Positions 12,572 to 30,192 are shown, counted from the first letter of the stretch. The stretch: DNA of 64,000 bases from an uncultured Gemmatimonadaceae bacterium (GCA_963740355.1 CAVUDW010000002.1:1408001-1472000), one strand, 5' to 3'. Notes: generated from the sequence alone by a model not told the origin. A program made the numbers and translations.

Positions 12572-12619
12572 ATATTACATGGAATCTACTTGGAGCACAA
12601 ACCATATTCCGCGGAATAT
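12572..12619. promoter_or_regulatory. Probable MarR operator: perfect 16-bp palindrome plus degenerate copy
   Basis: ATATTCCGCGGAATAT (12604-12619) and ATATTACATGGAATCT (12572-12587) between divergent genes. Confidence 0.65.
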
Positions 12620-12636
12620 ATCCTGTCAAGACGCCG

Positions 12637-13086: not shown

Positions 13087-13119
13087 ACGCCCCGGGCGGC
13101 TGTGCATTGCGTGCAGGCA

Positions 13120-13342: not shown

Positions 13343-13393
13343 ACGTGAGCTACTCCGAGGTCGCATTCCACGTCACATCTGCATCGCAGTGCT

Positions 13394-13485
13394 GCCTAAC
13401 GACCAGGGTTCTGCTGCAAAGTGGGCACCTGGTCGTTATCGAGCTCACAAATCGTCCGCCACTTCGTCAGCAACAGCACGCGGAC
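13394..13485 (-). other. Degenerate attC-like site
   Basis: Minus strand CTGTTGCTGACG-AAGTGG...CCACTTT-GCAGCAGAA-CCCTGGTC-GTTAGGC; same arms as the sites at 23616 and 26554; R'' eroded. Confidence 0.5.
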
Positions 13486-13656
13486 CAGAAAAACATGCGT
13501 CGCAGCATGAAGCGCGCTGTGCGTCCGTCCGGCGCCCACGTCGCACGGAATGCCTCACCGCCATCGGCGCAGCTCTCCACCAACAGGCCGCTCTGCCCTC
13601 CAGACGCCGGTACCAGTCCGATGCCGTCGGGAGCGTGAAAGGCCGGCTGCCCAAAC

Positions 13657-14772
13657 TCAGGTGTGCTGCCCAATCGCCAGCGCCAGACGTCGCACCCCCT
13701 CCACCAACTCGTCTGCGTCGTAGTGCGCGAAGCTCAGACGCGCCGAGTGCGGGAATGTGCCGCCACGCACGAATCGCGCGCCTGGATGAAACGTCACGCC
13801 GTATCTGGTCGCGATGTTGAGCAATTCCGCGGCCAAGATACTGCCAGGAAACTGCAGCCACACGAAGTAGCCACCGCGAGGTTCGACGAAGTTGGTCTGC
13901 GGCAGCTGCGTGCATAACGCGTCGCTCAAGGCGACGGCCCGAGCGGCGTGCGCGCTGCGCAGGGTGTCGAGCACCGTGTCTGCCAGTCCCATGTCGATGA
14001 GACTCTTCACGACGCCCGCTGCGAACGGATTGAGGCCTCCGCCGCTCTGTACCACGCCGGATTGTGTGAGGGTGTCGAGCAGCGCGGGCGCGCCGTGTAT
14101 CCAGCCCAATCGCAAACCGGGCGCGCAGATCTTGGAGAACGACCCGAGTGAGAGGACGCGGTCGGCGCCCGCATAGGTGGCGAGCGGTGGCGGCGGCGCG
14201 GCGCCGAAATCGAGCAGCTGGTACACCTCGTCCGCCACGACCAGCAGCTCGTGCTCGCGGCTGAGGGCGATGAGCTGCTCGCGTCGCTCGGCCGACATCG
14301 TTACGCCCGATGGATTCTGGAACGACGGAATGGTGTACAGCAGCGCCGCACGATGTTGCGTGAGCGCAGTACGCAGCGCATCGATGCGCAGGCCATCGTG
14401 GTCGATAGGGATGCCGACGACGCGCAGCCCATGATCACGAAAGATGTCGAGCGCGAGGAAGTAGGTCGGCTCTTCGACGAAGATCGTGTCGCCCGGCCGA
14501 GTGAAGCGCGTGCAGACGAGATCGAGCGCCTGCGAGATGCCAGCCGAGACGATGAGATGGCTCGTTTGGACTGGCGCCGCGTAGCGACGCGTCAGGAAGT
14601 CCGCGAGCGAGGTGCGAAAGCCCTCGTCGCCCGGATCGACGCCATATTGCAGCAGTGTGGCATCGCCCTGCGCCAGCGCGTGATCGGCGGCGACGCGCAG
14701 CGCTTCAACCGGAAGCAGCGACAGCGACGGCTGGCCGTTGCCGAAGTCGATGACGGTGTCCGTCGTGATCAC
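13657..14772 (-). CDS. PLP-dependent aminotransferase class I/II
   Basis: FQNPSG, DEVY, SFSKICAPGLRLGW. Confidence 0.93.
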   Translation of the reverse strand: MITTDTVIDFGNGQPSLSLLPVEALRVAADHALAQGDATLLQYGVDPGDEGFRTSLADFLTRRYAAPVQTSHLIVSAGISQALDLVCTRFTRPGDTIFVEEPTYFLALDIFRDHGLRVVGIPIDHDGLRIDALRTALTQHRAALLYTIPSFQNPSGVTMSAERREQLIALSREHELLVVADEVYQLLDFGAAPPPPLATYAGADRVLSLGSFSKICAPGLRLGWIHGAPALLDTLTQSGVVQSGGGLNPFAAGVVKSLIDMGLADTVLDTLRSAHAARAVALSDALCTQLPQTNFVEPRGGYFVWLQFPGSILAAELLNIATRYGVTFHPGARFVRGGTFPHSARLSFAHYDADELVEGVRRLALAIGQHT

Positions 14773-14964
14773 AGTCCCATCGCGCGCAGGAGTTCAGGAG
14801 GGCGCCGGTGTGCGCCGAGAGGAAACGTCGCCCGGAGATCCGGCGCGACGGAAGGTATGGCAGGGCGGGGCATGCCGCTCCCACGTCGCCGCCCCCGTAT
14901 CGTATCCTTCCTTCGCGCCCCCACGCTGGGAATTCTGCGCCCCGCACCTATCGTCTGGAGCCAC

Positions 14965-16266
14965 ATGGTCAGCCGCCGCGAACGTCGCCTTCACGCCCCG
15001 TCCCTCTGCAGTGCCACGCTGCTCGCGTTTCTCGGCGTCACGACAGCCAGTGCGCAACGGCCGGCCGCCGACCCGCTCGCCCACGCGAAGGCGCTGCTCG
15101 CCACCACGCCATTGGTCGACGGCCACAATGACCTGCCGTGGGCGATTCGCGAATCGAAGAGCGCACCACGTGACATCGAGGCCTACGACCTGCGCAAGCG
15201 CACCCCGCACCAGACGGACCTCGCCCGCATGAAGGCCGGTCACCTCGGCGGGCAGTTCTGGTCGGTCTACATCCCCGGCGAGATCCGCGACAGCGGCTAT
15301 GCGCGCGTGCAACTCGAGCAGATCGACATCGCGCGCCGCGTGATCGCGAAGTACCCCGAGCTACTGATGCCGGCCAGCACCGCCGCCGACGTACGCCGCG
15401 CTTTCAAGCTCGGCAAGGTGGGATCGATGCTCGGCATGGAAGGCGGGCACGCCATCGAGAACTCGCTCGGCGCGCTTCGCACGTACTACGACATGGGCGT
15501 GCGCTACATGACGCTCACGCACAACGTCACCCTCGACTGGGCCGACGCCGCGCTCGACAGCTCAAAGCACGGTGGCCTCACACCGTTCGGGCGTGAGGTT
15601 GTGCGCGAGATGAATCGCACCGGCATGCTGGTGGACCTGTCGCATGTCTCACCCGGCGTGATGAGCAACGCGCTCGACGTGGCCGAGGCGCCGGTGATCT
15701 TCTCGCACTCGGCCGCGCGCGGGCTGGTCGAACATCCCCGCAACGTGCCGGACTCCATCCTGCGCCGCCTGCCGCGCAATGGGGGAGTGGTGATGGTGCC
15801 GTTCGTGACGAGCTTCACGTCGCCGGCGGTCCGCGCGCATGATGTCGCACGTGACAGCGCCGTGCGTGCGATCCGCGCTGCGACCGGCAGCGACACGACC
15901 GCCGCGCGAACGGCACTGCGCGCGTGGGAATTGTCGCACCCTGCTCCCAAAGCGACGCTCAGCGACGTGGCCAATCACATTGAGTACGTGCGCAAGGTCG
16001 CCGGCGTGAACCACGTCGGCATCGGTTCGGATTTCGATGGCGTCGATGACGACCTGCCCGTCGGGCTCGAGGACCAGTCCACGTATCCCGCACTGTTCGC
16101 GGAGTTGATCCGCCGTGGCTGGAGCGATGCCGACCTGCGCAAGCTGGCCGGCGAGAACGTGCTGCGCGCGCTGTCGCAGGCCGAGGTGGTGGCGAAGCGG
16201 CTGCAACGCGCACGGCCGGCGTCGACGCGCACCATCCGCGACATGGACACCCCGCTGCATCCGTAG
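14965..16266 (+). CDS. Membrane dipeptidase (peptidase M19), exported
   Basis: DGHNDLPW, GMEGGH, LTH, VDLSH, FSHS, GIGSDFDG; signal peptide. Confidence 0.93.
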   Translation: MVSRRERRLHAPSLCSATLLAFLGVTTASAQRPAADPLAHAKALLATTPLVDGHNDLPWAIRESKSAPRDIEAYDLRKRTPHQTDLARMKAGHLGGQFWSVYIPGEIRDSGYARVQLEQIDIARRVIAKYPELLMPASTAADVRRAFKLGKVGSMLGMEGGHAIENSLGALRTYYDMGVRYMTLTHNVTLDWADAALDSSKHGGLTPFGREVVREMNRTGMLVDLSHVSPGVMSNALDVAEAPVIFSHSAARGLVEHPRNVPDSILRRLPRNGGVVMVPFVTSFTSPAVRAHDVARDSAVRAIRAATGSDTTAARTALRAWELSHPAPKATLSDVANHIEYVRKVAGVNHVGIGSDFDGVDDDLPVGLEDQSTYPALFAELIRRGWSDADLRKLAGENVLRALSQAEVVAKRLQRARPASTRTIRDMDTPLHP

Positions 16267-16299
16267 CAGTCCCACACCTGGCACGCGGGGCACGAGACC

Positions 16300-17166
16300 A
16301 TGACGGTGGTGATCGGCATCTTCATGGCGCTGGCGGCGGTGACACTCACCTACGTCGGCGTCCTCGCCAGATGGCTGCGACGATCGCGCGCGGACGGTGC
16401 GCCGTCGCCGGTGCCGTCAGCGGGCCAGCTGGCGCTCGGCTTCGTCACCAACTTCTTCGACACACTCGGCATCGGCTCGTTCGCCACGACGACGGCCGGG
16501 TTCAAGTTCTGGAAGATGCTGCCGGACGAGCTCATTCCCGGTACGCTGAACGTCGGTCACACGGCGAGCTCGGTGATGCAGGCGTTCATCTTCATCATCG
16601 CCATCCAGATGGACCCGCTGACGCTGATCCTGCTCCTGGCGAGCGCCGCGTGTGGTGCCTGGTTCGGCGCCGGTCTCGTGGCTGGCCTGCCGAGGCGGTC
16701 GGTGCAACTCGGCATGGGCACCGCACTCCTGGTGTCGGCGAGTGTGATGACACTCAGCCAACTCAACCTCCTGCCCGTCGGCGGCGCCGCGCTCGCGCTG
16801 CATGGCTGGAAGCTCGCCGTCGGCGTTGGCGGCAACTTCGTGCTCGGTGCGCTGATGACGCTCGGCATCGGCATGTATGCGCCGTGCATGATGCTCGTGA
16901 GCCTGCTCGGCATGAACCCGTCGGTGGCATTCCCGATCATGATGGGGTCGTGCGCGTTCCTGATGCCGGTGGCCAGCCTGCGGTTCATCGAGCGCAGCGC
17001 GTTCCAGCCGCGCGTGGCGATGGGACTCGCCATCGGCGGCGTGTTCGCGGTGCCGTTGGCGGCATTCGTCGTGAAGTCGCTGCCGCTGACGGTGCTGCGG
17101 TGGGTGGTGATCGTGGTGGTGGTGTATGCGGCGGTGTTGATGTTGCGGTCGGCGAGGACACGATGA
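16300..17166 (+). CDS. TauE/SafE (TSUP)-family membrane protein
   Basis: Multi-TM; NFFDTLGIGSFATT, GIGMYAPC, AFPIMMGSCAFL. Confidence 0.8.
   Translation: MTVVIGIFMALAAVTLTYVGVLARWLRRSRADGAPSPVPSAGQLALGFVTNFFDTLGIGSFATTTAGFKFWKMLPDELIPGTLNVGHTASSVMQAFIFIIAIQMDPLTLILLLASAACGAWFGAGLVAGLPRRSVQLGMGTALLVSASVMTLSQLNLLPVGGAALALHGWKLAVGVGGNFVLGALMTLGIGMYAPCMMLVSLLGMNPSVAFPIMMGSCAFLMPVASLRFIERSAFQPRVAMGLAIGGVFAVPLAAFVVKSLPLTVLRWVVIVVVVYAAVLMLRSARTR
16640..17159 (+). repeat. ~520-bp direct repeat, copy 1 (3' part of tauE-like gene)
   Basis: Near-identical to 20824-21343 (offset 4184; about a dozen mismatches by eye). Confidence 0.95.
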
Positions 17167-18998
17167 TGGACGCGCGGTGGGTGCGATCCGCTGTGAGGAC
17201 GGCGGCGTTGCTGATGCCGCTGCTGACCGAGACGGCGATCGCGCAGGCGCCCGCATCGCCTGCGCCCCGTCAACGGACCTACGCCAACCCGATCGACATC
17301 GACTACCGCTACAACTTCGAGCAGCTCAATCAGGGCATCTCGTATCGCTCGGGCGCCGACCCGGTCATCGTGGTGCAACGCGGCAAGTACTATCTGTTCG
17401 AGACACTCGGTGGCGGCTACTGGGAGTCGAGTGACCTGGGCACGTGGCGACACATCACGCCGACACGCTGGCCGATCAACGACATCGTAGCGCCCTCGGC
17501 GCTCTCGGTGCGCGACACGATCTACCTGCTGCCCAGCACCACGAGTCCGCTCCCCATCCTGATGCTGCCGCAGGCCGGCACGGGACGCGTCGAGTTCTAT
17601 AACCGCCTGATGCCATGGCTGCCGATGGCGCGCGATCGTGAAGGACTCACCCTCGCTAGGCCGGATTCGGCGCAGCCCGGTCCGTGGGACGCGCAGTTCT
17701 TCCACGATCCCGACACGGAGCGGTGGTTCCTGTACTGGAACTCGTCGAACGTGTATCCCTTGCATGGAATCGAGTTGGACAAGGGCAAGCGCCTCGTCTA
17801 CGAGGGCACACCGAAGTGGCTGTTCGGCCTCGACCCGACACGGCATGGATGGGAACGATTCGGCCGCGACCATCGCGACACCACCATCGCGCCTTTCATC
17901 GAGGGCGCGTGGATGACCAAGCATCGTGGCAAGTACTATCTGCAATACGGTGCACCGGGGACGGAGTACAACGGCTACGCCACCGGCACCTACGTCGGTG
18001 ATGACCCACTCGGCCCGTTCACCTACGCGCCCTACAATCCCGTCGCGTACAAGCCCGGTGGCTTCGTGCAGGGGGCAGGGCATGGCAACACGTTCCAGGA
18101 TGTGCACGGCAACTGGTGGAACACCGGAACGCCGTGGATCGGCGTGAACTGGAACTTCGAGCGCCGCATCGGGCTGCATCCGGCCGGGTTCGACGCCGAC
18201 GGCCAGATGTATGTGGATACTCGGTTCGGTGACTATCCCCACTGGCTCCCCGGCAAGGCCTGGCGCACCAGCGACGAACTGTTCACGGGCTGGATGCTGC
18301 TGTCGTATCGCAAGCCGGTCACCGCGTCCTCGGCGCGCGACAGCTTCCCCGCCGCCACGATCACCGACGAGAATCCGCGCACCTACTGGGTGGCCGCGCA
18401 GAACCGTCCCGGTGCATGGCTCACGATCGACCTCGGATCGGCGTTCGACGTGAAGGCGATCCAGGTGAACTATGCCGACTACAAGTCCGGTCTGTATGGC
18501 ACCGATTCCACCGGCGTCACGCAGTTCCGTCTGCAGCTGTCACGGGACGGCAGGACGTGGCGCACCGCCGCCGATCTCTCGCGTGAACGACGCGATCGCC
18601 CGAATGCCTACGTCGAGCTGCGCGCAGCGGTGCGTGCGCGCTACGTGCGCTACGAGCACGTACACGTCGGCGCCGCCAACCTCGCCATCAGTGACATTCG
18701 CGTGTTCGGCAACGGATCCGGGCCGAGGCCGGTCACGCCGGCGGGATTGCGCGCGCAGCGCGACCGCGACGAGCGCAATGCAGTGATCAGCTGGGACGCC
18801 GTTCCGGGGGCCACCGGCTACAACGTGCGGTGGGGCATCACGCCCGAAAAGCTGTACCAGACGTACCAGCGCTTCTCCGACCAGGGGAGCACGTTCGAAC
18901 TGCGCGCGCTGTCGCTCGGCGTGAACTACTGGGTGGCGATCGAGAGCTTCAACGAGCAAGGAGTCTCGACGCTGAGTGCGCCGGTCCCGATCCGGTAG
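17163..18998 (+). CDS. Secreted GH43 glycoside hydrolase with F5/8 (discoidin) and FN3 domains
   Basis: GADP, IEGAWM..H.GKYYLQY, GPFTY..YNP, GHG; WLTIDLG; ISW..VPGATGYNV.WG. Confidence 0.88.
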   Translation: MMDARWVRSAVRTAALLMPLLTETAIAQAPASPAPRQRTYANPIDIDYRYNFEQLNQGISYRSGADPVIVVQRGKYYLFETLGGGYWESSDLGTWRHITPTRWPINDIVAPSALSVRDTIYLLPSTTSPLPILMLPQAGTGRVEFYNRLMPWLPMARDREGLTLARPDSAQPGPWDAQFFHDPDTERWFLYWNSSNVYPLHGIELDKGKRLVYEGTPKWLFGLDPTRHGWERFGRDHRDTTIAPFIEGAWMTKHRGKYYLQYGAPGTEYNGYATGTYVGDDPLGPFTYAPYNPVAYKPGGFVQGAGHGNTFQDVHGNWWNTGTPWIGVNWNFERRIGLHPAGFDADGQMYVDTRFGDYPHWLPGKAWRTSDELFTGWMLLSYRKPVTASSARDSFPAATITDENPRTYWVAAQNRPGAWLTIDLGSAFDVKAIQVNYADYKSGLYGTDSTGVTQFRLQLSRDGRTWRTAADLSRERRDRPNAYVELRAAVRARYVRYEHVHVGAANLAISDIRVFGNGSGPRPVTPAGLRAQRDRDERNAVISWDAVPGATGYNVRWGITPEKLYQTYQRFSDQGSTFELRALSLGVNYWVAIESFNEQGVSTLSAPVPIR

Positions 18999-19085
18999 CA
19001 CGACCTGACGGTCGGCGCCGGCGGGCGACGTGTCGAGCGTCACCAATGTCCCCATGGCACGCAATGTCGGACGTACATTCCCGGC

Positions 19086-20315
19086 ATGACCCAGCGATCC
19101 ACGTCCACCGCCGGCCGCGCCGCGCTCGCGTCGGCCTTCGTCGCCTCTTGCCTCGCGCTCGCCGTCATCCCGTCGACAATGTCCGCGCAGAGAACGCCTG
19201 CTGCCCCTAGGGCGCGCACCTACCCGCTCTACATCGGCACCTACACGCAGGGGTGGGCCTGTGCCGAGCGGAATGACTGCACCAGCGCCGGGATCTATCG
19301 CGCGGAGTTCGACGCCGCGACCGGTGCACTCTCGGCGCCGGTCCTGGTCACGAAGGCGGTGAACCCGTCGTACGTCGCCGTGCATCCGAGCGGTCGCTTC
19401 GCCTACGCGGTGAACGAGGTGGGCGACTTCGGTGGCCAGCCCACCGGCGCGGTGTCGGCGTATCGCATCGGGGCAGGGAGCCGGCTGACCGCGATCGGCA
19501 TGGTGTCGTCGTTCGGCGCCGACCCGTGCTACGTCTCGGTCGATGCGGCGGGCCGCACCCTCTTCGTCGCCAATTATTCCGGCGGGAGCATCGCCAGCTA
19601 TCGCATCGCCAAGGACGGCACGCTCAGCGTCGCGTCGCAGATCCCGCTGGCCGGCTCAGGCCCGCACCCGAACCAGAAGGGACCGCACGGGCATTTCATC
19701 GCCGAGTCGCCCGCGAAGGGTCGCATCTTCGTCGCTGACCTCGGCAGCGACCAGGTGCGCGTGTATCGCGTCGACGCCGTGACGGGCACGCTGACGCCGG
19801 ATGCGGTGCCACCGGGCCGCGTCGACGCCGGCAGTGGACCACGCCACATCGCGTTCGATCCCTCCGGGCGCTGGGCGTACGTCAACAACGAGCTCGCGTC
19901 CACGGTGACCGTGTTCGCGCTCGACGCGGCCACCAGCGCGCTCTCTCCAATGCAGACGCTTAGCACGCTGCCCGCCGGCTTCACCGGCGCGAACGATACG
20001 GCCGAGATCCAGGCCAGCGCCGACGGCCGCTTCGTGTACGTCTCGAATCGCGGCCACAACAGCATCGCGGTCTTCCAGGTCGATGCGGCGTCCGGCAGGC
20101 TCACCTTGCTCGACGTCACGCCCTCCGGCGGCGACTGGCCCCGCGACTTCAAGCTCGATCCCACCGGCGGCTTCCTTCTCGTGGAGCACCAGAAGTCCGA
20201 CAACATCGTCGTCTTCCGCATCGATCGCACGACCGGGCGGTTGACGCCGACGGGGAATGAGCTGCGGGTGTCGAAGCCGGTGAGCATTGCGTTCCTGCCG
20301 GGTGCGCGGCGGTGA
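19086..20315 (+). CDS. Lactonase, 7-bladed beta-propeller (Pgl-like), exported
   Basis: YIGTYT, NPSY, VANY.GG, ADLG.D, GSGPRH, YVSNRGHNSI, WPRDF. Confidence 0.92.
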   Translation: MTQRSTSTAGRAALASAFVASCLALAVIPSTMSAQRTPAAPRARTYPLYIGTYTQGWACAERNDCTSAGIYRAEFDAATGALSAPVLVTKAVNPSYVAVHPSGRFAYAVNEVGDFGGQPTGAVSAYRIGAGSRLTAIGMVSSFGADPCYVSVDAAGRTLFVANYSGGSIASYRIAKDGTLSVASQIPLAGSGPHPNQKGPHGHFIAESPAKGRIFVADLGSDQVRVYRVDAVTGTLTPDAVPPGRVDAGSGPRHIAFDPSGRWAYVNNELASTVTVFALDAATSALSPMQTLSTLPAGFTGANDTAEIQASADGRFVYVSNRGHNSIAVFQVDAASGRLTLLDVTPSGGDWPRDFKLDPTGGFLLVEHQKSDNIVVFRIDRTTGRLTPTGNELRVSKPVSIAFLPGARR

Positions 20316-20370
20316 CGTGTCTCGCGTGCCCGTGCGCGCCCTGAAATCCCCCCTCTTCACCCATCCTCGC

Positions 20371-20766
20371 ATGAAGCCCGCCTCGCTGTTCGTCACACTT
20401 GCTGTCGCCCTGCTGGCGATCGCTCTTCCCACCGAGCCGGCCGCGGCGCAGCAGGCGCCTCCGCGGCAGCTGATGCACGTGGTCTCGTTCCGGTTCAAGC
20501 CGACGGCCACGGCGCCGCAGATCGACTCGGTCGTCGCGGCGTTCAAGGCCCTTCGTACGAAGATTCCGACGATTCGTGAGTTCTCGTGGGGCACGAACGT
20601 CAGCCCCGAGAAGCTGAACAAGGGATTCACGCACGCGTTCGTGCTCAGTTTCGCCAGTGACGTGGATCGAGATGCGTATCTCGTGCATCCGGACCATGTG
20701 AAGTTCGGGACGTTGCTGTGGCCGATTCTCGATGATGTTTTCGTGATCGACTACTGGACGCGGTGA
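20371..20766 (+). CDS. Dabb-family stress-responsive A/B barrel protein
   Basis: HVVSFRFK, WGTNVSPE...KGFTH, RDAYLVHPDH. Confidence 0.9.
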   Translation: MKPASLFVTLAVALLAIALPTEPAAAQQAPPRQLMHVVSFRFKPTATAPQIDSVVAAFKALRTKIPTIREFSWGTNVSPEKLNKGFTHAFVLSFASDVDRDAYLVHPDHVKFGTLLWPILDDVFVIDYWTR

Positions 20767-21389
20767 TGCTGGAGCCGGTGGGCTGCGAACTGTCGAGGGG
20801 CGTCAGTCAGGTTCCGTATCCGCCGAGCGCCACGCGTGGTGCCTGGTTCGGCGCCGGTCTCGTGGCGGGCCTGCCGAGGCGGTCGGTGCAACTCGGCATG
20901 GGCACGGCGTTGCTGGTGTCGGCGAGCGTGATGACACTGAGCCAACTCAACCTCCAGCCCGTCGGCGGCGCCGCGCTCGCGCTGCATGGCTGGAAGCTCG
21001 CCGTCGGCGTTGGCGGCAACTTCGTGCTCGGTGCGCTGATGACGCTCGGCATCGGCATGTATGCGCCGTGCATGATGCTCGTGAGCCTGCTCGGCATGAA
21101 CCCGTCGGTGGCGTTCCCGATCATGATGGGGTCGTGCGCGTTCCTGATGCCGGTGGCCAGCCTGCGGTTCATCGAGCGCAGCGCGTTCCAGCCGCGCGTG
21201 GCGATGGGACTCGCCATCGGCGGCGTGTTTGCGGTGCCGTTGGCGGCATTCGTCGTGAAGTCGCTGCCGCTGACGGTGCTGCGGTGGGTGGTGATCGTGG
21301 TGGTGGTGTATGCGGAGGTGTTGATGTTGCGGTCGGCGAGGACGGACGTGGTTCGCGCACGGGCCTTGGGCGTCGCGCCGGAGATCTGA
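20766..21389 (+). pseudogene. 5'-truncated duplicate of the tauE-like gene (repeat copy 2 at 20824-21343)
   Basis: Lacks the first ~113 codons; L>Q and A>E changes; frame open from ATG overlapping the Dabb stop. Confidence 0.75.
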
Positions 21390-21479
21390 TTCTGGCAGAC
21401 TGACGATGTCGCGGACGACACGCTTCGGTAGGGGAAGCGGCTACGCGTGGCGGGATCGGCCCAACTAGCGTCCGCGGCT

Positions 21480-21729
21480 GCGGGTCTCGTCAGCGCGAGG
21501 ATTCGCCGTCACAGTCATCATGTGCTTCCGGAGCCGCGCGCTGTGCACCGTTAATGTGCTCGAAGCGCACCATGTCGGGCGGCACGAAGTCGCGAATCGT
21601 AGTCGGGCGATCTGCTGCGGGACGGTCCTGCTCGCCCGCTTCGACACACGGGATTACATCGTCCAGAGCTGCCCTACGCGCAAAGCTTGTTGCCGGACTA
21701 AAGTGCAAGACATATTCCCGGCTATTCCA
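21480..21729 (+). mobile_element. IS481-like relic (transposase C-terminus and right end)
   Basis: HHVG.HEV...AI..GTVLLARFDTRDYIVQS then TGTTGCCGG...CCCGGCTATTCCA; homologous to 25540-25708. Confidence 0.6.
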
Positions 21730-21832
21730 ACGCGCGAGGACGCTGCGAACGAGATGCCTCATCCGCACTGTACGCGACTTCCCTTTAGTCACGATGCTTC
21801 TGAGAACAGGTAGCGTGTGGCTTCGCAGCGCA

Positions 21833-22480
21833 CTAAGCAGCTTTGTTGCCGTCTGGCGGTGCCAGGAATGAGCGGTTCTCAACAGCCGACGAAATGCTCA
21901 GAGCTAACTCATAGATAGCATTCGTCACGGCGACCTCGTACTTCGCATACTCCTCAATACTGGAGATCACATTCTTCTTCCCGTGCGCAATCTCGTTTCG
22001 CCGTTTTACCAGTGTCTTCAGCTTGGCGGTGTCGTCTTCTAGCGAAGGCATGTGCAGATTGAGAGTGTCGCAGTGCTGCTTGAGCAGACTTGGATACAGG
22101 TTCCCGTTTGTGTCCGCTTTTGTTTCGAATACCGCAGGCTTTGCAAGTTCGGTCGGAAGTACCTCTGTAAAGAATCTCCACAATTCTGGAGACGAGGTGT
22201 CGCCGCGCAATTTTTTGAACTGAGTGTCTAGAGAGAATTGAGCCAGCGACGGGCTGAATTCTGCGCGCGCAACTGAACAGCGCTCTAGTTCGCCTAAGTA
22301 AAGGTCTAGTGCATACTTGCAGAAGCCTTCGTAGTGCGCATACAGCATGACCCAGAGTGCGCGGAGCCCAGCGGCGTAACGCACGGCGTCCGTATTCACG
22401 GTCGCGATCGCAAGGCGCAGCGCTGCAAGTTCCGCCATTCGCCAATCGATGTCTTTCTCAAGCTCTGCCTCGATTGCCAC
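21833..22480 (-). CDS. HEPN-domain putative RNase (MAE_28990/MAE_18760-like)
   Basis: MLYAHYEGF and RxxxxH motif RRNEIAHG; coupled to DUF262 gene. Confidence 0.8.
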   Translation of the reverse strand: MAIEAELEKDIDWRMAELAALRLAIATVNTDAVRYAAGLRALWVMLYAHYEGFCKYALDLYLGELERCSVARAEFSPSLAQFSLDTQFKKLRGDTSSPELWRFFTEVLPTELAKPAVFETKADTNGNLYPSLLKQHCDTLNLHMPSLEDDTAKLKTLVKRRNEIAHGKKNVISSIEEYAKYEVAVTNAIYELALSISSAVENRSFLAPPDGNKAA

Positions 22481-22482
22481 TG

Positions 22483-23571
22483 TCAGCCCGCGGATGCTGC
22501 GAGTGCGTGCTGAACCAGAGCGATGCGAGCCTCGAGCTTTTGTTTAGAGTTCGCTCCTGGGCCCGTCACGTCTCGGAAAGCGTTTCCCTGAACGGTATCT
22601 CGTATCGCAATTGCGAACTGCTCTTTAGAGATCTCTTCCACTCTCGCGAGTGAGCGGTGGACAGCCATTGCAACGGCTTCGAAGTACGCCGGAGCAAGCC
22701 CGCCGAGCGGGACGTTGTTCCTGTACCGTACGAACGATGAATCGCCCGTTCGCACGGCAAGGGCGTCGAAAACCGCACTGAACTCTCTAATCTCTTCATC
22801 TTGGTCAAACGACGACTTTTCAAGGATTACGCGCTCCATGTAGTCGTCAAGCCAGTCGCGCACGCTACCCCTAAAGCCGTCCTGATAGTTCTTAAGAGCA
22901 AAGAAGCGAAGTGCAAGCTCTTCATCTGCCTTCTGCTCGCGTTCACGCTCCGGGATTGGTGCAATGCAGAGCTTGTAACTCTCGAGAGAAGCACACCTCT
23001 GAAGAAATGTGTAGAACGCCGCTCCACGATCACCAAGAATTCTGGCTGTGACGTTTCGAATTTCCTGCGGAGCGAGGAGTGATCCGCCCGTATTGAGCCG
23101 TTTAAACATCTCAAATCGCAAGAACTGCGAGCTTTGCCGCTTAATCACCACAACGCGGACGGCTGATCGTTTTACACGCAAGCGCAACGTCAGCGAAAGA
23201 TCTGTAAACTTCAGACCGTCGAGCTCGGGAATAAGATCGCAACCCGTGAGTGCAAGTGGATCAGCACTAATGGTAGTCGAGTCGATGAAGCGTAGGATCG
23301 ACGATGTTCGCTGCAATCCGTCAATTAACTCAAAAATACCACCCGCATTCTCGATCACAAAAATCGGAGGGATGGGAAGTTCGAGTAGAATAGATTCTAT
23401 CAGACGCGACTGCTGTTCCTCTGACCACCGGAACAGACGTTGGTACTCTGGGGCAATCAGTAGCTCGTTCGATTTATGAAGGTTGACAATTTCGCCGAAG
23501 CTAATGTCTAGCGCTTCGGTACGAACTTCCCCAATCCGTTCGTCGATAATTTGCTCAAGATCTTTTGTCAT
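22483..23571 (-). CDS. DUF262 (ParB/GmrSD-like) protein
   Basis: PEYQRLFRW...SRLIESILLELPIPPIF, IDGLQR, MFKRLNTGG..L..QEIRN. Confidence 0.9.
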   Translation of the reverse strand: MTKDLEQIIDERIGEVRTEALDISFGEIVNLHKSNELLIAPEYQRLFRWSEEQQSRLIESILLELPIPPIFVIENAGGIFELIDGLQRTSSILRFIDSTTISADPLALTGCDLIPELDGLKFTDLSLTLRLRVKRSAVRVVVIKRQSSQFLRFEMFKRLNTGGSLLAPQEIRNVTARILGDRGAAFYTFLQRCASLESYKLCIAPIPEREREQKADEELALRFFALKNYQDGFRGSVRDWLDDYMERVILEKSSFDQDEEIREFSAVFDALAVRTGDSSFVRYRNNVPLGGLAPAYFEAVAMAVHRSLARVEEISKEQFAIAIRDTVQGNAFRDVTGPGANSKQKLEARIALVQHALAASAG

Positions 23572-23615
23572 TGTTCTAAGCTGCCCGGGGACAATTAAGG
23601 CGCAAGGCTCCAGCC

Positions 23616-23716
23616 GTCTGACGAGACAGGATTCTGCTGGGCGGCGACCGCACGAAAAGTCGTCCTGCTTACAATAGCCTGGTCGCCGCGTCAACAGCAA
23701 CCCGGATTCGCTAGCC
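23616..23716 (-). other. attC-like integron recombination site after Abi gene
   Basis: Minus: GGCTAGC (overlaps Abi stop)...TTGCTGTTGAC-GCGGCGACC...GGTCGCCGC-CCAGCAGAA...GTCAGAC; 101 bp. Confidence 0.65.
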
Positions 23717-24526
23717 GCGCGCCGTTCTTTCGTCCCAAGTTGTGATTATAAACGTTGAAAGTGTGTGGGCCGCGCCAATAACGAGGCTGGCGTGACGCGG
23801 CGAGAGTCGGTACGACGTGCGTCCGCGTCCGTGAGCTGATCCGGTATGCGTTCGAAATGCACCGTGGCCATGAACTATTGCCGAGAGCCCAGCTAACACT
23901 TGGCGCAAATCATTGTCAGGAATGGACTTCGGATCTAGTCCCAGATCGGCTTGCACGATTTTCCAGAGAGGTTGCACAGACTGGTCTGATGGCAACTCTA
24001 GGCCGCAGTCTTCGATATAGACCTTGCACAGCGACTCAAGAATTGCGCAAGCGGCGGTCACGGCCGCTGCAGGATCCGACTGAACACTCTCAAGCGCGCG
24101 ATCAAACTCGGTGTTCACGCCTCCGAGATCGCGCTCGCGCAGGATCGCCTCGAGTTGTCGAATCGGCGCAACCGAGCCGGCGACAATGACCCTGCCACCC
24201 CGAACGTACTCAAGGCCTTCCCGGTTCAGAAGCTGCCTGACTCGCACTTGCTGCTTGGAGTGCTCGTCGTTGAAGTGGTAGTGCCCCTGAATGTCCGTGT
24301 CCATGAACTGTTCGAGAACAGCACCGAGGACCCGAAGCCCGTCGCATTCAGGATCCGCTGCGGCGCGCTTCAACCACGCCACGGACTTGTCGACACAGTT
24401 TCCCTCAGGCGCGTCTCCTGGTGCGCCACTCTCAGCGAACAAACGATTGAGCGTCGCGTGGTGGTAGTAGTAGCCCCCGAGAACGTCACCGACAACTATC
24501 GCCACCGAGTTCGAGAAGCCAGCCAT
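23711..24526 (-). CDS. Abortive-infection family protein (Abi_C C-terminal domain)
   Basis: DP..AVTAACAILES.CK, L.GL..IV.G.G.FRTH.GSAHGRG, PRHA.L....AHTL..F. Confidence 0.8.
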   Translation of the reverse strand: MAGFSNSVAIVVGDVLGGYYYHHATLNRLFAESGAPGDAPEGNCVDKSVAWLKRAAADPECDGLRVLGAVLEQFMDTDIQGHYHFNDEHSKQQVRVRQLLNREGLEYVRGGRVIVAGSVAPIRQLEAILRERDLGGVNTEFDRALESVQSDPAAAVTAACAILESLCKVYIEDCGLELPSDQSVQPLWKIVQADLGLDPKSIPDNDLRQVLAGLSAIVHGHGAFRTHTGSAHGRGRTSYRLSPRHASLVIGAAHTLSTFIITTWDERTARG

Positions 24527-24668
24527 CAGATCAAATGTAGGTTGCTAGCTAGAAAATATGACTGGGCGGGCCCCCCGGTTTCGCGTGGGCTAGCTCCTCA
24601 ATGCGAATCGAGGTACCAGAGCCACCTGCGACGATCGAGCATGTCGCCGTTCTTCGGAGGACCAGCCC

Positions 24669-25543
24669 ATGTCCACGAAATCGGGTGTTCGGTCGCCAAT
24701 TGCTCCCTCAACAATCTTCGTTGGACTCGAAGTGCACAAGGAGTCCGTCACCCTGGCCCTCCTGCCCACCGACGACCTTGCGCCGGTGCGGGTCGACAAG
24801 CTGCCCTACGACCTGAAGAAGCTCGGACGCTACCTGGAGATGCTCGGGCCGGCCGACAGGCTGCGCACGTGTTACGAGGCGTCCGGTGCCGGCTCTGTGC
24901 TGCAACGCGAGCTGGCCATCTGGGGCATCGCGTGCTCGCTAGCCGCGCCGTCGCTGATTCCGACCAAGCCCGGGGTCTAGCGCAAGCGCGACAAGTATGA
25001 CGCGGCACAGCTCGCGCGGCCGTTTCGCGCGGGGTAACTCACGGCCGTGGTTGTGCCGACCGAGACAAAGGACGCGTGCGCGACCTCGTCCGCTGTCGCT
25101 CGGCGTTCCAATGCGACATCCTGACATCTTGGCAATAAGTTCTGAAGTTCCTCACGCGCCGTGGCCCTGGTGTATCGCGAGGGCACGCCGTGGCGGAAGC
25201 CGGGCTACGAGTGGTTGCGTCGTCTCGCGCGTGCCGACTCGTCGCTCGCGGCGGAAGATCGCATCGTTTTCGGCGAATACCTTGCGCTGCTTGAGTACAA
25301 GTTCAGTCGGCGTGATGAATTGGATCGCCAGATCGCCGCGTTAGGTTTTCTCCGGCGTTGGCGCCCAAAATCGCGCGCCTGCGGTGCTTCCGCGGGCTCG
25401 ACACGCACGGCGCGATGGTGCTGGCGACCGAGCTCGCGGCCTGGCAGCGCTTCGGGTCGGCGCGCGAGCTGATGGGTACTTCGGGCTCGTCCCTCGGGAG
25501 CATTCGAGTGGGGACCGCCAGCGCCGCGGCTCGATCACGAAAC
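24669..25543 (+). pseudogene. IS110-family transposase pseudogene
   Basis: IFVGLEVHKES, CYEASG.G, APSLIPTKPGV*RKRDKYDA, GLVPREHSSG..QRRGSITK; stops, frameshifts, 3' truncation. Confidence 0.85.
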
Positions 25544-25708
25544 CAATCAACGGATCGGTCTGGATGAGACCGACGACAGCCTCTGGGCGATCTACCTCCA
25601 CACGGTCCTGCTTGCCACGTTCGAGGAACGCGACTACATCGTCCAGAGCTGACCCACACGTAATGGATGTTGCCGGAATATCGTGTCAATAATCTCACCG
25701 GCTGTTCA
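25540..25708 (+). mobile_element. IS481-like relic (transposase C-terminus and right end)
   Basis: NQRIGLDETDDSLWAIYLHTVLLATFEERDYIVQS* then TGTTGCCGG...CACCGGCTGTTCA. Confidence 0.65.
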
Positions 25709-25721
25709 GTAGACCCCTCAA

Positions 25722-26525
25722 TTATCCCCAGGCCTCCAATACATCCGCTCTCCGATACCCGTCGGGAGACTCGATGTGACTTGGATACTTCAAGCAAAGT
25801 CCAAATTCAGAATCTCTGTAGCGGTTTTGGAGTTGCCGCCAATGCGTGATCAGGTAGTAGATTGCAGCGCGAGTTCCAGCACCTTCGATCCCGGCTGCGA
25901 CAAAAACTGGAACGTCGGAATCAGTGTCAATGCTCTTGTCAAATACCTTGAGCAAGATCGCTGTCTCCCAGCCGTCCGGCTCAATGACTGCCTTCCCAGT
26001 ATCCTGGCCACGATTGCGAACTACAGACCAGCGCTCGTTGCGTACTTCGAGCAGGAAGCTCGGTTTGCACGTGTGGAAATAGTGCGCCGCCGCGGTATTG
26101 TGACGCGGACCACCTATGCAGACAGTTGGCCCGGATGAGAGTTCATTCTCCGTCTTCGGGCTGCAGCGAAAATCCAAGACTGGCGGCCGCGCTAGCCAGC
26201 TACTACTCACTGACAACAGCTCAGGTAAAGACTCGAGCATCGTTGTCGAGAAGAGCGATGACAGTAGCGGAACCAGCTTGAACTCCGACTCAGGAAGTCC
26301 TCGCGTATACGGACGGGTGTTTCCGAACCGATCTTTCACACCTCCTACCGGAACCTCGAGAGCCGATAGATACACGAAGAGTCGTTCGGACTTGCCGACG
26401 CCAAAGAAGCGATGCAATCGTCGACGGCGGTTTCTCAACAAGCCTGCAACAAGCACAGCTGATGGAACTAGCAGCGCAATACTTGAGACGAGATTGGCTA
26501 GAACATCGTGAAGGAATGGGCTCAC
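25722..26525 (-). CDS. Hypothetical protein with N-terminal TM helix (cassette-borne, candidate defence protein)
   Basis: TM segment then RRRR; IGGP..N and VAAGI...GT.AA motifs; GAGGAG RBS; atypical codon usage. Confidence 0.75.
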   Translation of the reverse strand: MSPFLHDVLANLVSSIALLVPSAVLVAGLLRNRRRRLHRFFGVGKSERLFVYLSALEVPVGGVKDRFGNTRPYTRGLPESEFKLVPLLSSLFSTTMLESLPELLSVSSSWLARPPVLDFRCSPKTENELSSGPTVCIGGPRHNTAAAHYFHTCKPSFLLEVRNERWSVVRNRGQDTGKAVIEPDGWETAILLKVFDKSIDTDSDVPVFVAAGIEGAGTRAAIYYLITHWRQLQNRYRDSEFGLCLKYPSHIESPDGYRRADVLEAWG

Positions 26526-26553
26526 GTCTCCTCAATGTGAAATGTGGAGCGGT

Positions 26554-26650
26554 GTCGAACGAAAATACGTTCTGCTGCACTGCGGCCGACAGATGCCAAT
26601 CCTGGTCACCGACCCGTGGCCGCAGTGGCTGCAGCAAAGCGGGGTTAGCC
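26554..26650 (-). other. attC-like site after TIR gene
   Basis: Minus: GGCTAAC-CCCGCT-TTGCTGCAGC-CACTGCGGCC...GGCCGCAGTG-CAGCAGAA-CGTATTTTC-GTTCGAC; 97 bp. Confidence 0.72.
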
Positions 26651-26674
26651 AGCCACACGCCGAAGCTCCTCGGC

Positions 26675-27520
26675 TTAGAATGGTAGATCGTCATCGTCAG
26701 CAGAGCGAACTGCGGCGAACAGCTCGGACAACTCTGTCGCGGACGCCGCGCCGAGCTTGACGACGTTTCGGCTCGGTCGTGCTACCCTCTGAGCGAGGTA
26801 TACCAGCGGACGTTCGAGACCGTCAAGTGCTTCACGTACTTCCACGGTAAGCGCTGCGGGATTCAGGGCGAGTGCCGACAACAACTTCCTCGCGGATACG
26901 AGCAAATCGGACAAGGCAGACGGGGAGACTGGGTCCGAGTCATGGGCCGGTCTTGCGCGTGAGATGACTCGCGAAAGTGCCAGAACTTCTTCGAGAATCT
27001 CCTTTTCCGTTCTGACTGGCGTGACCACGTCCGCTTCAACCCGGTCCATGATGGACTCGACCTGCTCTTTAAGGCGTGGCCACCACATGGCAAAGACGTC
27101 TTGCACGACATCCGGACCAAGACGGTGCTCGCCGAGCTCTGAGTTGATTGCGATCACAACTTTTCGCATCTCCTCCATTGAAAACTCAGCAGACTGAAAC
27201 TGTGTCATTGGACCGACGAGGTCACCAGTGTGAACGCCGAAGAGGATCGGAATAACCCGGGCGCTGCCGATGTTCTTTGACAATGCGCCAGCCTCAAACA
27301 TCAACCATGGCGCTTCAAGGTTGTCGCGCGTCAGGCAAACAATTCCGAGTTTTGACTCATTTAGCTCTCCCGCGATCTCGCTTGACCAGCGAGTGCCCTT
27401 AGTCACGTCATCGGGCGAAAAGTATGGCCGCGATGCCTGAATGACGCTCGGTAGCCATTGGCGTAAGACGTCCGCGATCGCGCGGCTCCGTTCCCCGGAC
27501 CAGCTCAGAAAGACTTTCAT
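26675..27520 (-). CDS. TIR-domain protein
   Basis: MKVFLSWSG.RS, D...G.RW...I..EL, GIVCLT..N..APWLMFEAGAL (catalytic-position Glu). Confidence 0.88.
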   Translation of the reverse strand: MKVFLSWSGERSRAIADVLRQWLPSVIQASRPYFSPDDVTKGTRWSSEIAGELNESKLGIVCLTRDNLEAPWLMFEAGALSKNIGSARVIPILFGVHTGDLVGPMTQFQSAEFSMEEMRKVVIAINSELGEHRLGPDVVQDVFAMWWPRLKEQVESIMDRVEADVVTPVRTEKEILEEVLALSRVISRARPAHDSDPVSPSALSDLLVSARKLLSALALNPAALTVEVREALDGLERPLVYLAQRVARPSRNVVKLGAASATELSELFAAVRSADDDDLPF

Positions 27521-27904
27521 GCTCGGAAAGTTGAGGACGTGTTGTCACTAGAACATGATTGCTGGGTAGCCCACAATTAGACAGAAAAGTACCTAATGAC
27601 GGATTCTGTCGCGACGCAACGCTGCAGCGCCAGCGCTATCTGTCCTCGGAACCACAGTCATCGCCCCCTCCCAACGCAGGAGCCGCTTCCGCAACTCGCC
27701 ACTACGCAACGAGTTAGACGCGTTCTGTCGTTGTGCCGCCCCGGCGTCTCGCTTCGAGAAGTCTTTATAGCGGCACTGTGCAGCCTAGCATCCCAGAGCG
27801 AGCCCCCAGCTCCACCTGCTTCGCGAGCGCCTTCCGGGAGAAGTCGGCCTCGCTACCACGGTCAGGCCACAGCGCGCATCACCGCCGCCGTCGCCCCACG
27901 CCAA

Positions 27905-29024
27905 TCACCCCGCCATCACTACCGGCAACGCCATCCGCCGCCGCCCATCTCGAGTCCCGGCCTCGATGAACCCCCCACCCAACACCCGGTCCCCATCATA
28001 CAGCACCATCGACTGCCCTGGACTGATGGCACTAGAGCGCCTCCTCCAACGCCAACTCCATCTCATCCCCATCCAAACGGACGATCTCGGCAGCAACAGG
28101 CACCGCCCGATGCCGATGCTGTACCGACACCCGATCCCCAACCGTGAGGGGCGCCGGCGACATCCACCGCACCCCCCGCGCAATCAACCCGCGCCCCAGC
28201 AACGACTCCCGCGGCCCCAGCACCACGGCGCGCGTTTCGGGCTGAATGGCCACCACGAACATCGGCTCCGCAAACCCACCCGGCACACCCTTCCGCTGCC
28301 CGATCGTAAACCGCGCATACCCATCATGCTCACCAACTGGCACACCGCTCTCGAGCACGAACGGCCCCCGCTGCAACGACGGCGTGTCATCGCCAAGCTC
28401 CCGCCGGATGATCTTCACATGATCACCATCGGGCACGAAGCAGATGTCCTGACTCTCCACCTTCTCCGCAATCACCTCGAGCCCAAGCCGGTGCGCCATC
28501 GCCCGCGTCTCCGCCTTGGTCTGGTGCCCGACAGGCAGCAACAACCGCTGAACGACGGCCCGCTCGACCCCCCACAGGAAGTACGTCTGGTCTTTCCCAT
28601 GATCGAGCCCGCGATACAAATCACCATCGATCGCCCGCGCATAATGCCCAGTCGCGATCCAGTCGCACTCCAACGCCTCGGCCTTGCGCGCCAGGTCGCG
28701 AAACTTCGTAAACGTGTTGCACCGCACACAGGGAATCGGCGTGCGTCCGCGACTGTATTCGTCCACGAAGTCCTGCACGACGTCGCGACCGAACGCACTC
28801 TCGAGATTGAGCACGTAGTGCGGCACCCCAAGCTGCTGGCACACACGACGCGCATCATTCACGCTGTCGAGCGAACAGCAGGGCCGATCAGGCAGGTCTT
28901 CACCGTGACAGAACAGCTTCATGGTGGCGCCGATCACCTCGTAGCCCTGCTCGTGCAACAGCGCGGCGGCGACGGAACTGTCCACGCCACCGCTCATCGC
29001 CACCAACACACGACGCCCTGCCAT
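27905..29024 (-). CDS. mnmA: tRNA 2-thiouridylase MnmA, +1 frameshift near 28034
   Basis: AMSGGVDSSVAA, TPIPCVRCN, ATGHYA, KDQTYFL, ESQDICF; conserved tail AISPGQSMVLYDGDRVLGGGFI lies in the next frame. Confidence 0.92.
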
Positions 29025-29028
29025 CTGC

Positions 29029-30192
29029 CTAGACCGCGCCAGCGAGACGACGTGCCTTCTCGACGAGGGAAGGGAAGACCTCGCACACGCGCGCGATGTC
29101 GGCATCGGTGCTCAGCATGCCGACCGACAGACGCACCGCTGCACCAGCCAGCCCACGCGACACGCCCATCGCGCTCAACACATGGCTCGGCGACACACTC
29201 CCACTCTGGCAGGCCGATCCACCGCTGGCAGCAATGCCGGCGAGGTCGAGCGCCATCAACAGGCTTTCGCTGTCGGTCCCTGGCACGCTCACGTTCAGGA
29301 TGTGCGGCGCACGCGTCGCTCCAACACCATGCACCACGGCATCCGGCACACGGGCGAGGATCGCACGCTCCAGCGCATCACGCATCGCGCCCAGTCGCGT
29401 ACACTCGGCTTCCCGCTCCGCGAGCTGGAGTTCGGCCGCCACCGCGAGACCGACGGCGAACGCCACATTCTCGGTGCCGGGGCGGCGTCCGCGATCCTGC
29501 GAGCCACCATGAAACAGCGGCTCGAACGGCGTGCCGCGTCGCAGGAACAACGCGCCAATGCCCTTCGGGGCACCGATCTTGTGCCCGCTCAACGACAGGA
29601 TGTCCACCGGCAGCGTGGTCATGTCGATCGGCAACTTGCCGAACGCCTGCACGGCGTCGGTGTGCATCAATGCACCCACACGACGCGCGTGGGCGCCGAT
29701 CGCGGGAATGTCCTGCACCACGCCGATCTCGTTGTTGATCCACATCACGCTGCACACCGCGACCTGCTCATCGACCAACTCGTCGAGCGCCGCCAGGTCG
29801 ACCACACCATCGCACGTCACTGGGAAGAGGCGCTCCTCACCACCCTCACGCGCGACCTGATGCACGACCTCGAGCACCGCCTTGTGCTCGGTCGGGCTGG
29901 TCACGACCGCGTTGCGGCCCTGCGCCCGACGCATCCGCCAGGTGCCGATGATGGCGAGGTTGTCGCCCTCGGTGCCGCCGGAGGTGAACACGATCTCGTC
30001 CGGCTGCGCCTTGAGACAGGCCGCGATCCGCGACCGCGCCTCGTCCAGCGCCGTGCGCGCGTCCCGACCCCAGCGGTGCACGCTGGACGGGTTGCCGAAC
30101 CGCGCGCCGAAAAAGGGCGTCATGGCTTCCAGCACCTCCGAACGAACGGGGGTGGTGGCGGCGTGGTCGAGGTAGATGGGCGGCGGGGCCAT
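29029..30192 (-). CDS. iscS: Cysteine desulfurase (IscS/NifS family)
   Basis: YLDHAATTP, GNPSS.H, FTSGGTE, HTDAVQ, SGHK..APKG, GSAC. Confidence 0.92.
   Translation of the reverse strand: MAPPPIYLDHAATTPVRSEVLEAMTPFFGARFGNPSSVHRWGRDARTALDEARSRIAACLKAQPDEIVFTSGGTEGDNLAIIGTWRMRRAQGRNAVVTSPTEHKAVLEVVHQVAREGGEERLFPVTCDGVVDLAALDELVDEQVAVCSVMWINNEIGVVQDIPAIGAHARRVGALMHTDAVQAFGKLPIDMTTLPVDILSLSGHKIGAPKGIGALFLRRGTPFEPLFHGGSQDRGRRPGTENVAFAVGLAVAAELQLAEREAECTRLGAMRDALERAILARVPDAVVHGVGATRAPHILNVSVPGTDSESLLMALDLAGIAASGGSACQSGSVSPSHVLSAMGVSRGLAGAAVRLSVGMLSTDADIARVCEVFPSLVEKARRLAGAV

Follow-up and report, generated by a model that had tools for sequence, protein, structure and literature searches.

Five genes on the minus strand, encoding a TIR-domain protein, a 267-amino acid (aa) protein, an Abi_C/AbiJ-like protein, a DUF262 protein and a HEPN protein, occupy the region from 21.6 to 27.7 kb of the window, i.e. 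the whole 64,000-nucleotide stretch of DNA analysed here, which represents C2:1408001-1472000 of a 5.45-Mb, ~67% GC genome in five contigs (C2 and C3 in what follows being contig names). The mnmA gene (28032-29105, minus strand) lies directly upstream of this island and has the same orientation, and the island genes are interspersed with imperfect palindromes and with the remains of two insertion sequences (IS; Table 1). Judged from its sequence, the island is very probably part of an integron cassette array, situated apart from its integrase, i.e. a cluster of attC sites without an integron-integrase (CALIN), with recombination sites of the attC family that is found in an integron on contig C3 of the same genome. 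An earlier interpretation of this DNA, made without database searches (the sequence-only reading), had described five co-oriented, AT-richer genes and had seen no integrase gene (intI) in the window, and both descriptions were borne out. The GC content per 500 bp between positions 21500 and 27500 is 0.49-0.66, and mostly 0.55-0.60, as against 0.64-0.71 in the flanks, and none of the five matches to the integron-integrase model TIGR02249 in the genome falls within the window. The low GC content of the island would be compatible with a foreign origin.

Table 1. Features of the island and its surroundings (positions counted from the first nucleotide of the window; R1 and R3 are the covariance models described in the text)
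Feature	Position	Strand	Evidence or remarks
Lone third member of the attC family, same 19.2-kb insert	13390-13493	-	R1 40.4 bits; R3 47.7 bits, E 1e-11
Right-end fragment of second multicopy IS, copy A	21605-21729	+	right after HEPN gene; 72-74% identical to copy B
9-bp inverted repeat after HEPN stop	21741-21749 / 21822-21830, 72 nt apart	.	fold z -0.7
HEPN_MAE_28990 protein	21833-22480	-	Pfam 1.8e-39
DUF262/GmrSD_N protein	22483-23571	-	Pfam 2e-24; PADLOC NsnA 2.5e-56, PD-T4-2_A 8e-35
attC2, overlaps Abi stop (23711-23713)	23612-23715	-	R1 75.8 bits, E 3e-18; R3 82.6 bits, E 5e-22
Abi_C/AbiJ-like protein, 271 aa	23711-24526	-	Pfam Abi_C 3.8e-17; PADLOC AbiJ 6.6e-11
AGCTAGC, R' box remnant (GTT/AGC..) of lost attC	24544-24550	-	junction comparison with L021, L022, L024
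5' ~1 kb of IS1111-type (DEDD transposase) IS	24551-25542	+	pseudogene: in-frame stops, frameshifts; 3' part deleted
Right-end fragment of second multicopy IS, copy B	25542-25709	+	3' part of transposase gene plus terminus; abuts stop of 267-aa gene
267-aa protein, N-terminal hydrophobic helix plus alpha/beta domain	25722-26525	-	cassette 2; own attC missing
attC1, 3' end of TIR cassette	26550-26653	-	R1 59.0 bits, E 1e-13; R3 73.6 bits, E 2e-19
TIR-domain protein, 281 aa	26675-27520	-	Pfam TIR_2 2e-08; PADLOC PDLC03016 'TIR-TM' 1.5e-71
Possible eroded attC upstream of TIR cassette	27593-27719	-	R''-like GTCTAAC ... ACAGAA-N6-ATTAGGT, stem lost

For an integrase gene the sequence-only reading had pointed to the rest of the genome, and there the sole integrase was indeed found, on contig C3 (C3:2343237-2344169, minus strand). 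The gene is intact and without an internal stop, and it matches TIGR02249 with 385-386 bits (cut-off 265); the nearest homologues of the protein, at 63-73% identity, are from Gemmatimonadaceae and Gemmatimonas metagenome-assembled genomes. Directly 3' of intI, on the same strand, lie 16 sites (C3:2327937-2341786, minus strand) that are spaced 200-3269 bp apart, with 12 of the 15 intervals measuring 575-736 bp, and a direct-repeat search at the 5' side of intI found no array. The sites beside intI have the form R'' GCCTAAC - CCGGG - L'' TTGCTGCTGAC ... L' GCAGCAGAA - CCCTGTCTC - R' GTTAGGC, where the L'' box can also be written TTGCTGCTG and the spacer between L' and R' is N9. The family ends (consensus GCCTAAC / GTTAGGC) fit the canonical RYYYAAC/GTTRRRY around an imperfect hairpin. 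The longest ORFs between the sites are co-oriented and include those for DUF4177, DUF6933, GNAT, glyoxalase, beta-lactamase-fold, DUF4262, DUF4259 and UPF0167 proteins. The C3 array is an ordinary sedentary chromosomal integron in which intI is transcribed towards the cassettes.

The sites of this integron define a family of limited distribution. It was found in all 19 congeneric genomes, with 2-53 sites per genome, and in 3/21 relatives from outside the genus, and is essentially genus-level; 12 of the 16 Gemmatimonad intI loci examined have related sites immediately 3' of the gene, on its strand. The lineage-specific attC family that had been proposed from the island (TTGCTG...CAGCAGAA-N9-GTT) is thus real, and the regular expression TTGCTG-N30-90-CAGCAGAA gave 16 matches in the genome, 12 of which are palindromic and model-confirmed (six beside intI, three in the window and three elsewhere) and four unrelated. 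A further suggestion, that the motif might serve for mining across the phylum, was right in so far as the covariance model recovers cassette arrays in relatives, but the occurrence outside the genus makes 'phylum' too wide.

The relationship between the island palindromes and this family was assessed with covariance models. Model R1 was built from seven intI-adjacent sites only, whereas R3 was built from 82 sites, taken from the same genome outside the window and from congener arrays, with an explicit structure of 27 pairs; an automatic consensus (R2) kept 9 base pairs and was set aside. The window was searched with R1 and R3 on both strands, with filters off, at E<=10. Across the genome at E<=1, R1 gave 29 matches, comprising the 16 sites beside intI with one reverse-strand echo, three sites in the window and nine that are scattered. 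The window matches are attC1 and attC2, which lie between island genes, and a lone site at 13390-13493, overlooked in the sequence-only reading, that retains an intact R' box (GTTAGGC), has lost R'' and is located downstream of an aminotransferase gene (13657-14772, minus strand), at a distance of 164 bp; the next-best window match, at 18.3 bits, is the opposite strand of attC1.

The structure of the family was supported by comparison with shuffled and displaced alignments. In the set of 82 sites, 89.8% of cells pair as opposed to 83.6% in shuffles, a value that none of 500 shuffles reached, compensatory change is seen in 17/27 pairs, and the covariation score is 0.198 as compared with no more than 0.044 after displacement of the partners by 1-3 columns. 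The consensus has two single-base bulges on the R''/L'' arm, at model positions 18 and 25 (G and A, top strand), a 2/6-nt asymmetric internal loop dividing the R helix from the L helix, and a terminal loop that is variable and ~31 nt long. The family accordingly has all three of the unpaired features given for attC sites in the available part of PMC5027507, namely extrahelical bases in the L'' arm, a central spacer that is left unpaired and a terminal loop that varies. Both attC1 and attC2 align to this structure, so that the extrahelical-base geometry by which the sequence-only reading had proposed to judge the sites is present in each.

The two island sites differ in the state of their ends. 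The boxes of attC1 (R'' GGCTAAC, R' GTTCGAC) agree at 6/7 positions each and keep AAC and GTT, as expected of attC ends, whereas attC2 has R'' AGCGAAT (4/7, with AAC changed to AAT) and R' GTCAGAC (with GTT changed to GTC). On its alignment to the family, attC2 is a member by descent that has lost its core triplets, and, given the AAC/GTT core established in the literature (PMC5027507, available part), would be impaired. The two palindromes that the sequence-only reading had ranked highest were upheld by the model scores. The clear one (26554-26650) also has a marked DNA fold signal (z -3.2 and -2.7 on the minus and plus strands, respectively), and the one at 23616-23716 is an imperfect palindrome with a fold z of -1.3 in 146-nt context, its overlap with the Abi stop having been confirmed.

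The sites are placed as in cassettes. The beginning of attC1 is 24 nt past the TIR stop and attC2 spans the Abi stop, their ends being 28 nt before the start of the 267-aa gene and 45 nt before that of the DUF262/HEPN pair, respectively; with 2.8 kb between them and no intI in the window, they conform to the definition of a CALIN as at least two attC sites within 4 kb. The Abi cassette consists of an R' remnant, the ORF and attC2, the TIR cassette is bounded at its 3' end only, the 267-aa gene has lost its own attC, and no attC follows the DUF262/HEPN pair (cassette 4, 21833-23571), in which two bases separate the DUF262 stop from the HEPN start. Two weaker attC sites that had been proposed at the outer ends of the array fared less well. 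The segment 21730-21835 has no R1 or R3 match at E<=10 and contains just the short inverted repeat of Table 1, and is not supported as an attC. Similarly, neither model matches the minus strand of 27591-27719 at E<=10, and this segment gives no fold signal (z -0.3) and has only motif-level traces of a site. The composite pattern RYYYAAC..CAGAR-N5-10-RTTAG has seven matches in the genome, six in attC regions validated by covariance model and the seventh at 27593-27719. As the pattern was chosen post hoc, and about three genome-wide matches would be expected by chance on a rough calculation, 27593-27719 is plausible as an eroded attC only because of its position and orientation.

The missing attC of the 267-aa cassette can be traced through the IS debris that now occupies its place, which the sequence-only reading had not mentioned. 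Copies of the IS1111-type element in congeners, which are 77-84% identical to the window fragment, are intact at ~1.6 kb and lie on attC-rich contigs; the copy L024 encodes a 394-aa transposase with DEDD_Tnp_IS110 (PF01548) and Transposase_20 (PF02371) domains, and the element has subterminal inverted repeats ATATGACTGGGC / GCCCAGTCATAT. All three intact copies examined (L021, L022 and L024) split the R' box of an attC in one orientation. Their junctions, in attC orientation, read L' - spacer - GTT / IS / AGGC, AGAC or AGGT, which rebuilds GTTRRRY, and a fourth GTT/IS junction is visible in alignment row L049:6507-6610. The DEDD transposase, subterminal repeats and orientation-specific insertion into attC are those of the attC-targeting group of IS1111 elements. 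In the window, AGCTAGC comes directly after the left end of the IS, and the start of the Abi gene lies 17 nt further on; the Abi cassette therefore appears to have once begun at the R' box of the attC of the 267-aa cassette. In L023 (G001:C99, ~156-260 in locus coordinates) a long run of GCTGTTGCTGCT-like 12-nt tandem repeats was observed downstream of the IS1111-type transposase gene, the run being shorter in other copies; IS1111 elements carry a non-coding guide region where these repeats sit.

The second IS, which is putatively IS481-like by its C-terminal motif only, is represented by two right-end fragments. Copy B, joined at 25542 to the IS1111-type fragment, has full-length 168-bp matches in relatives, whose copies continue into a gene. 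Neither IS has an intact copy in the genome studied, and the second is multicopy and intact in relatives. The second IS was also considered as an attC-targeting element, a candidacy that was dropped in view of the flanks of nine copies, which share no attC half.

The position of the island was then compared among relatives. None of 12 relatives has the island at its mnmA locus, where similarity to the window ends in every case at 27917-27962, the 3' end of the gene. In nine of these loci the other flank resumes at window position 8631-8689, with a gap of 5-177 bp in five relatives and, in four, one filled by 0.9-4.0 kb of unrelated DNA; among the remaining three loci, one has unrelated DNA throughout and two are on contigs that end too early. 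Positions 8690-27916 are therefore a genome-specific insert of 19.2 kb at a variable spot 3' of mnmA, and the insert holds, besides the island, metabolic genes and the solitary attC at 13390. No R1 match was found at any of the 12 relatives' mnmA loci. The island DNA matches 18/19 congeners, and only via attC1, attC2 and the two IS elements; at the DNA level the five genes are absent from all 19, and in protein searches of these genomes the TIR protein was matched in one (weakly, at 29% identity), the Abi protein in one and the DUF262 protein in none. The mobility of the cassettes as units is inferred rather than observed, because no second copy of any island cassette was found.

Several further observations were made on the locus. 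The mnmA gene is seemingly frameshifted near its 3' end, in that the 357-aa ORF stops at 28032 and the conserved C-terminal part runs on in another frame to a stop at 27905-27907 (region 27905-28040), and this break may be a real lesion beside the insertion point or an assembly error. Elsewhere in the insert there is a 520-bp direct duplication, 98% identical, at 16640-17159 and 20824-21343; the ORF at 16300-17166 matches the C-terminal half of TauE and that at 20763-21389 the N-terminal half, and it looks as if a TauE gene had been split by about 3.7 kb containing GH43, lactonase and Dabb genes. Towards its left end (8690-12200) the insert contains ORFs without Pfam matches, a DUF4440 protein and a MarR regulator, together with a protein resembling type IV pilins that has an N_methyl motif (10615-11019). 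No tRNA was found in the window. Between 21400 and 28000, a sigma-70 promoter scan found no sites and terminator-like sites numbered three where 5.9 were expected, both results being uninformative for this phylum.

The cassette genes themselves resemble known defence genes to differing extents. Residues 1-185 of the TIR protein align to positions 1-190 only of the 293-position PADLOC 'TIR-TM' model; the protein has no Thoeris match in PADLOC and its neighbour has no PADLOC or Pfam family, which argues against membership of a Thoeris system, in which ThsB, a TIR protein, is paired with a ThsA-type effector. An AbiJ protein would combine an AbiJ N-terminal domain with an Abi_C (HEPN) C-terminus, and the Abi protein matches by its C-terminal part only (Pfam Abi_C, residues 187-261; PADLOC AbiJ, residues 147-262). 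The HEPN partner of DUF262 has no match to a B component at E<=0.01 in PADLOC, only one to Csx1 at 0.0048. By family membership only, the TIR protein may be an NAD+-consuming or signal-making abortive-infection protein, the Abi_C protein an AbiJ-like HEPN RNase, and the DUF262/HEPN pair a ParB-like NTPase/nuclease with an RNase partner; each cassette would be an independent small system, possibly transcribed via read-through from mnmA. A homologue of the Abi_C protein (31% identity) in congener G016 is itself a cassette, lying between attC sites of 80.4 and 94.0 bits, and its stop codon overlaps R'', as at the window Abi gene.

The middle gene is of a different kind. The 267-aa protein has no match in Pfam, NCBIfam or PADLOC, a word-based homologue search returned only the protein itself, and a related-locus search with the same protein returned nothing. 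Its family comprises 310 representative clusters at E<=1e-3, typically of 260-285 aa, and is rare in the phylum sample (1/400 other genomes). AlphaFold2 modelling with a 60-sequence alignment predicted a long helix at the N-terminus and, after it, an alpha/beta domain, with a predicted local distance difference test score (pLDDT) of 93.4, as compared with 39.3 for the single-sequence fold. A Foldseek search of the model against the PDB gave no match at E<=1e-3. The best VIA-align result was BcsB (Z 10.5, rmsd 3.4 over 161 residues), with others at Z 8.4-10.0 being N-terminal domains of glucuronidases (GH67/GH115) and GH84 enzymes and an S-layer anchoring domain, and this likeness is one of alpha/beta arrangement, not of function. 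The defence role of the protein is a guess from context, and its membrane anchoring is putative; that it constitutes a new single-gene anti-phage or exclusion system, membrane-anchored and in a cassette of its own between TIR and Abi_C, is a doubtful proposition at present. It is unlikely that the TIR and 267-aa genes form one two-gene system, since attC1 separates them.

The arrangement as a whole can be accounted for by four minus-strand cassettes, which in order would be a possible eroded attC and TIR with attC1, the 267-aa gene with its attC lost, Abi_C with attC2, and DUF262/HEPN with no attC. These cassettes would have been assembled through IntI-mediated attC recombination, and the array fragment would then have lodged in the variable hotspot 3' of mnmA. 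Subsequently, an attC-targeting IS1111-type element may have entered the R' box of the attC of the second cassette, after which that attC and the 3' part of the first element could have been lost in a deletion caused by the second IS.

A number of observations weigh against the CALIN interpretation. Membership of attC was established with a lineage-specific model and not with the generic one of IntegronFinder, attC2 is without the conserved AAC and GTT triplets, and no attC belongs to cassette 2 or cassette 4. Upstream, the TIR cassette is bounded only by a motif-level relic, which was found by a pattern chosen after the site had been seen, and the lack of a second copy of any cassette, noted above, belongs here too. 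Additionally, the GC content of the island, at about 0.55-0.60, is below that of the surroundings of the main array (0.59-0.68), and the break in the mnmA frame near 28032 may signal assembly errors that might also touch the reading of pseudogenes.

Other explanations of the locus were weighed against the same evidence. An ordinary defence island built mainly by IS-mediated events, in which recombination between IS copies joined the pieces and the attC sites were passive hitch-hikers, is a possible if somewhat unlikely alternative. It draws support from the two direct-orientation fragments of the second IS that flank the Abi and DUF262/HEPN segment (21730-25541), from the multicopy nature of this IS in relatives, and from the mosaic character of the 19.2-kb insert, with its metabolic genes and internal duplication. 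However, to either side of the IS debris the attC sites and the R' remnant coincide exactly with cassette boundaries, and the cassette organisation is therefore older than the IS events; IS-mediated assembly accounts for the rearrangement and not the origin of the island, and is compatible with its being a CALIN. That the repeats might be repetitive extragenic palindromic (REP)-like or terminator palindromes, unrelated to integrons, is barely credible. They are intergenic GC-rich hairpins downstream of genes, and an Rfam scan of 20000-30000 at E<=1 returned no match, Rfam having no attC family, but more than half of the R1 genome matches (16/29) cluster beside intI, a placement seen for related sites in 12/16 Gemmatimonad intI loci, and the repeats have RYYYAAC/GTTRRRY ends, asymmetric bulges and ORFs at cassette-like intervals, as well as being the specific target of the IS1111-type element.

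The remaining alternative concerns activity. The sequence-only reading had envisaged an IntI-shuffled defence library, in which case the C3 integrase would still excise, reorder and exchange the island cassettes in trans. The intact C3 intI and the ends, family stem and bulges retained by attC1 are in its favour, and the cassette content is wholly different between congeners, which implies turnover on some time scale. Nevertheless, this possibility appears improbable. With AAT and GTC in attC2, the attC of cassette 2 deleted, IS debris in the array and no attC after cassette 4, no cassette other than the TIR one could have usable sites at both ends, and there the upstream site is eroded. Sites away from the integron are decayed in general, R' GTTAG being found in 2/11 (and GTT in 6/11) as against 15/16 beside intI, where the exception is the most distal site. 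The array thus appears mostly frozen, since one attC has been deleted, none follows the last cassette and the triplets of attC2 are lost; of attC1 and attC2, only attC1 keeps AAC and GTT. Further off-integron attC clusters and single sites were noted at C3:724752-734236 (plus strand), C2:1978288-1978921 (minus strand), C2:1692390 and C3:839409, with R' mostly eroded. As to the second half of the description, 'defence library' fits this fragment but not the integron as a whole, because the main integron has one weak PADLOC match (PDC-S63, 6e-07) among 22 candidate ORFs, and within the fragment there is no defence evidence for the middle gene.

The island is real and represents a type of element that is already known, namely a CALIN with defence cassettes, and leaves the current picture of integrons unchanged. 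What is modestly new is the genus-wide attC family in Gemmatimonads, the attC-targeting IS1111-type element found there, and the uncharacterised cassette protein. The findings indicate that a soil phylum that has been little studied (the genome being probably of the Gemmatimonadaceae) has anti-phage genes in its integron cassettes, that pieces of an array seed defence islands away from the integrase, and that the insertion scars of IS1111-type elements can expose lost attC sites. The 267-aa protein provides a lead, as a confidently folded, uncharacterised family in defence company, and should it prove to be a defence system, then the genus attC covariance model would offer a practical means of collecting more such genes from the cassette pools of Gemmatimonads.

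Among known systems, CALINs are described, in the available part of PMC8618304, as attC sites numbering at least two, with less than 4 kb between them and no intI nearby, their proposed origins including rearrangement that separates them from intI and off-target insertion. The spacing of the window sites and the presence of a cognate intI elsewhere in the genome agree with this description, whereas the small size and heavy erosion of the fragment, with one attC destroyed by an IS and one with mutated core triplets, and the use of a lineage-specific model set it apart. The parent integron on C3, with its attC sites 3' of intI on the same strand, has the layout of the atypical integrons of Treponema, in which intI is transcribed towards the cassettes (PMC3607928, as far as available), albeit in another phylum. 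Likewise, the IS1111-attC group, whose members ISKpn4 and ISPst6 target one end of attC sites (PMC11187229, available part), shares with the element described here a DEDD transposase, subterminal inverted repeats and orientation-specific insertion into attC, but the present element is a new one of ~1.6 kb in Gemmatimonad arrays, and the window copy is a truncated pseudogene. Finally, anti-phage cassettes, mostly of a single gene and including the Abi_C/AbiJ-like 'Taranis', have been described in CALINs as well as in sedentary chromosomal integrons (Darracq et al., bioRxiv 10.1101/2024.07.02.601686), and defence cassettes in mobile integrons (bioRxiv 10.1101/2024.07.02.601719), in the parts of these reports that were available. 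Unlike those of Vibrio and clinical plasmids, the cassettes of the present island come from a probable Gemmatimonadaceae host, have a predicted defence role, and belong with a main integron that is almost without recognisable defence content.

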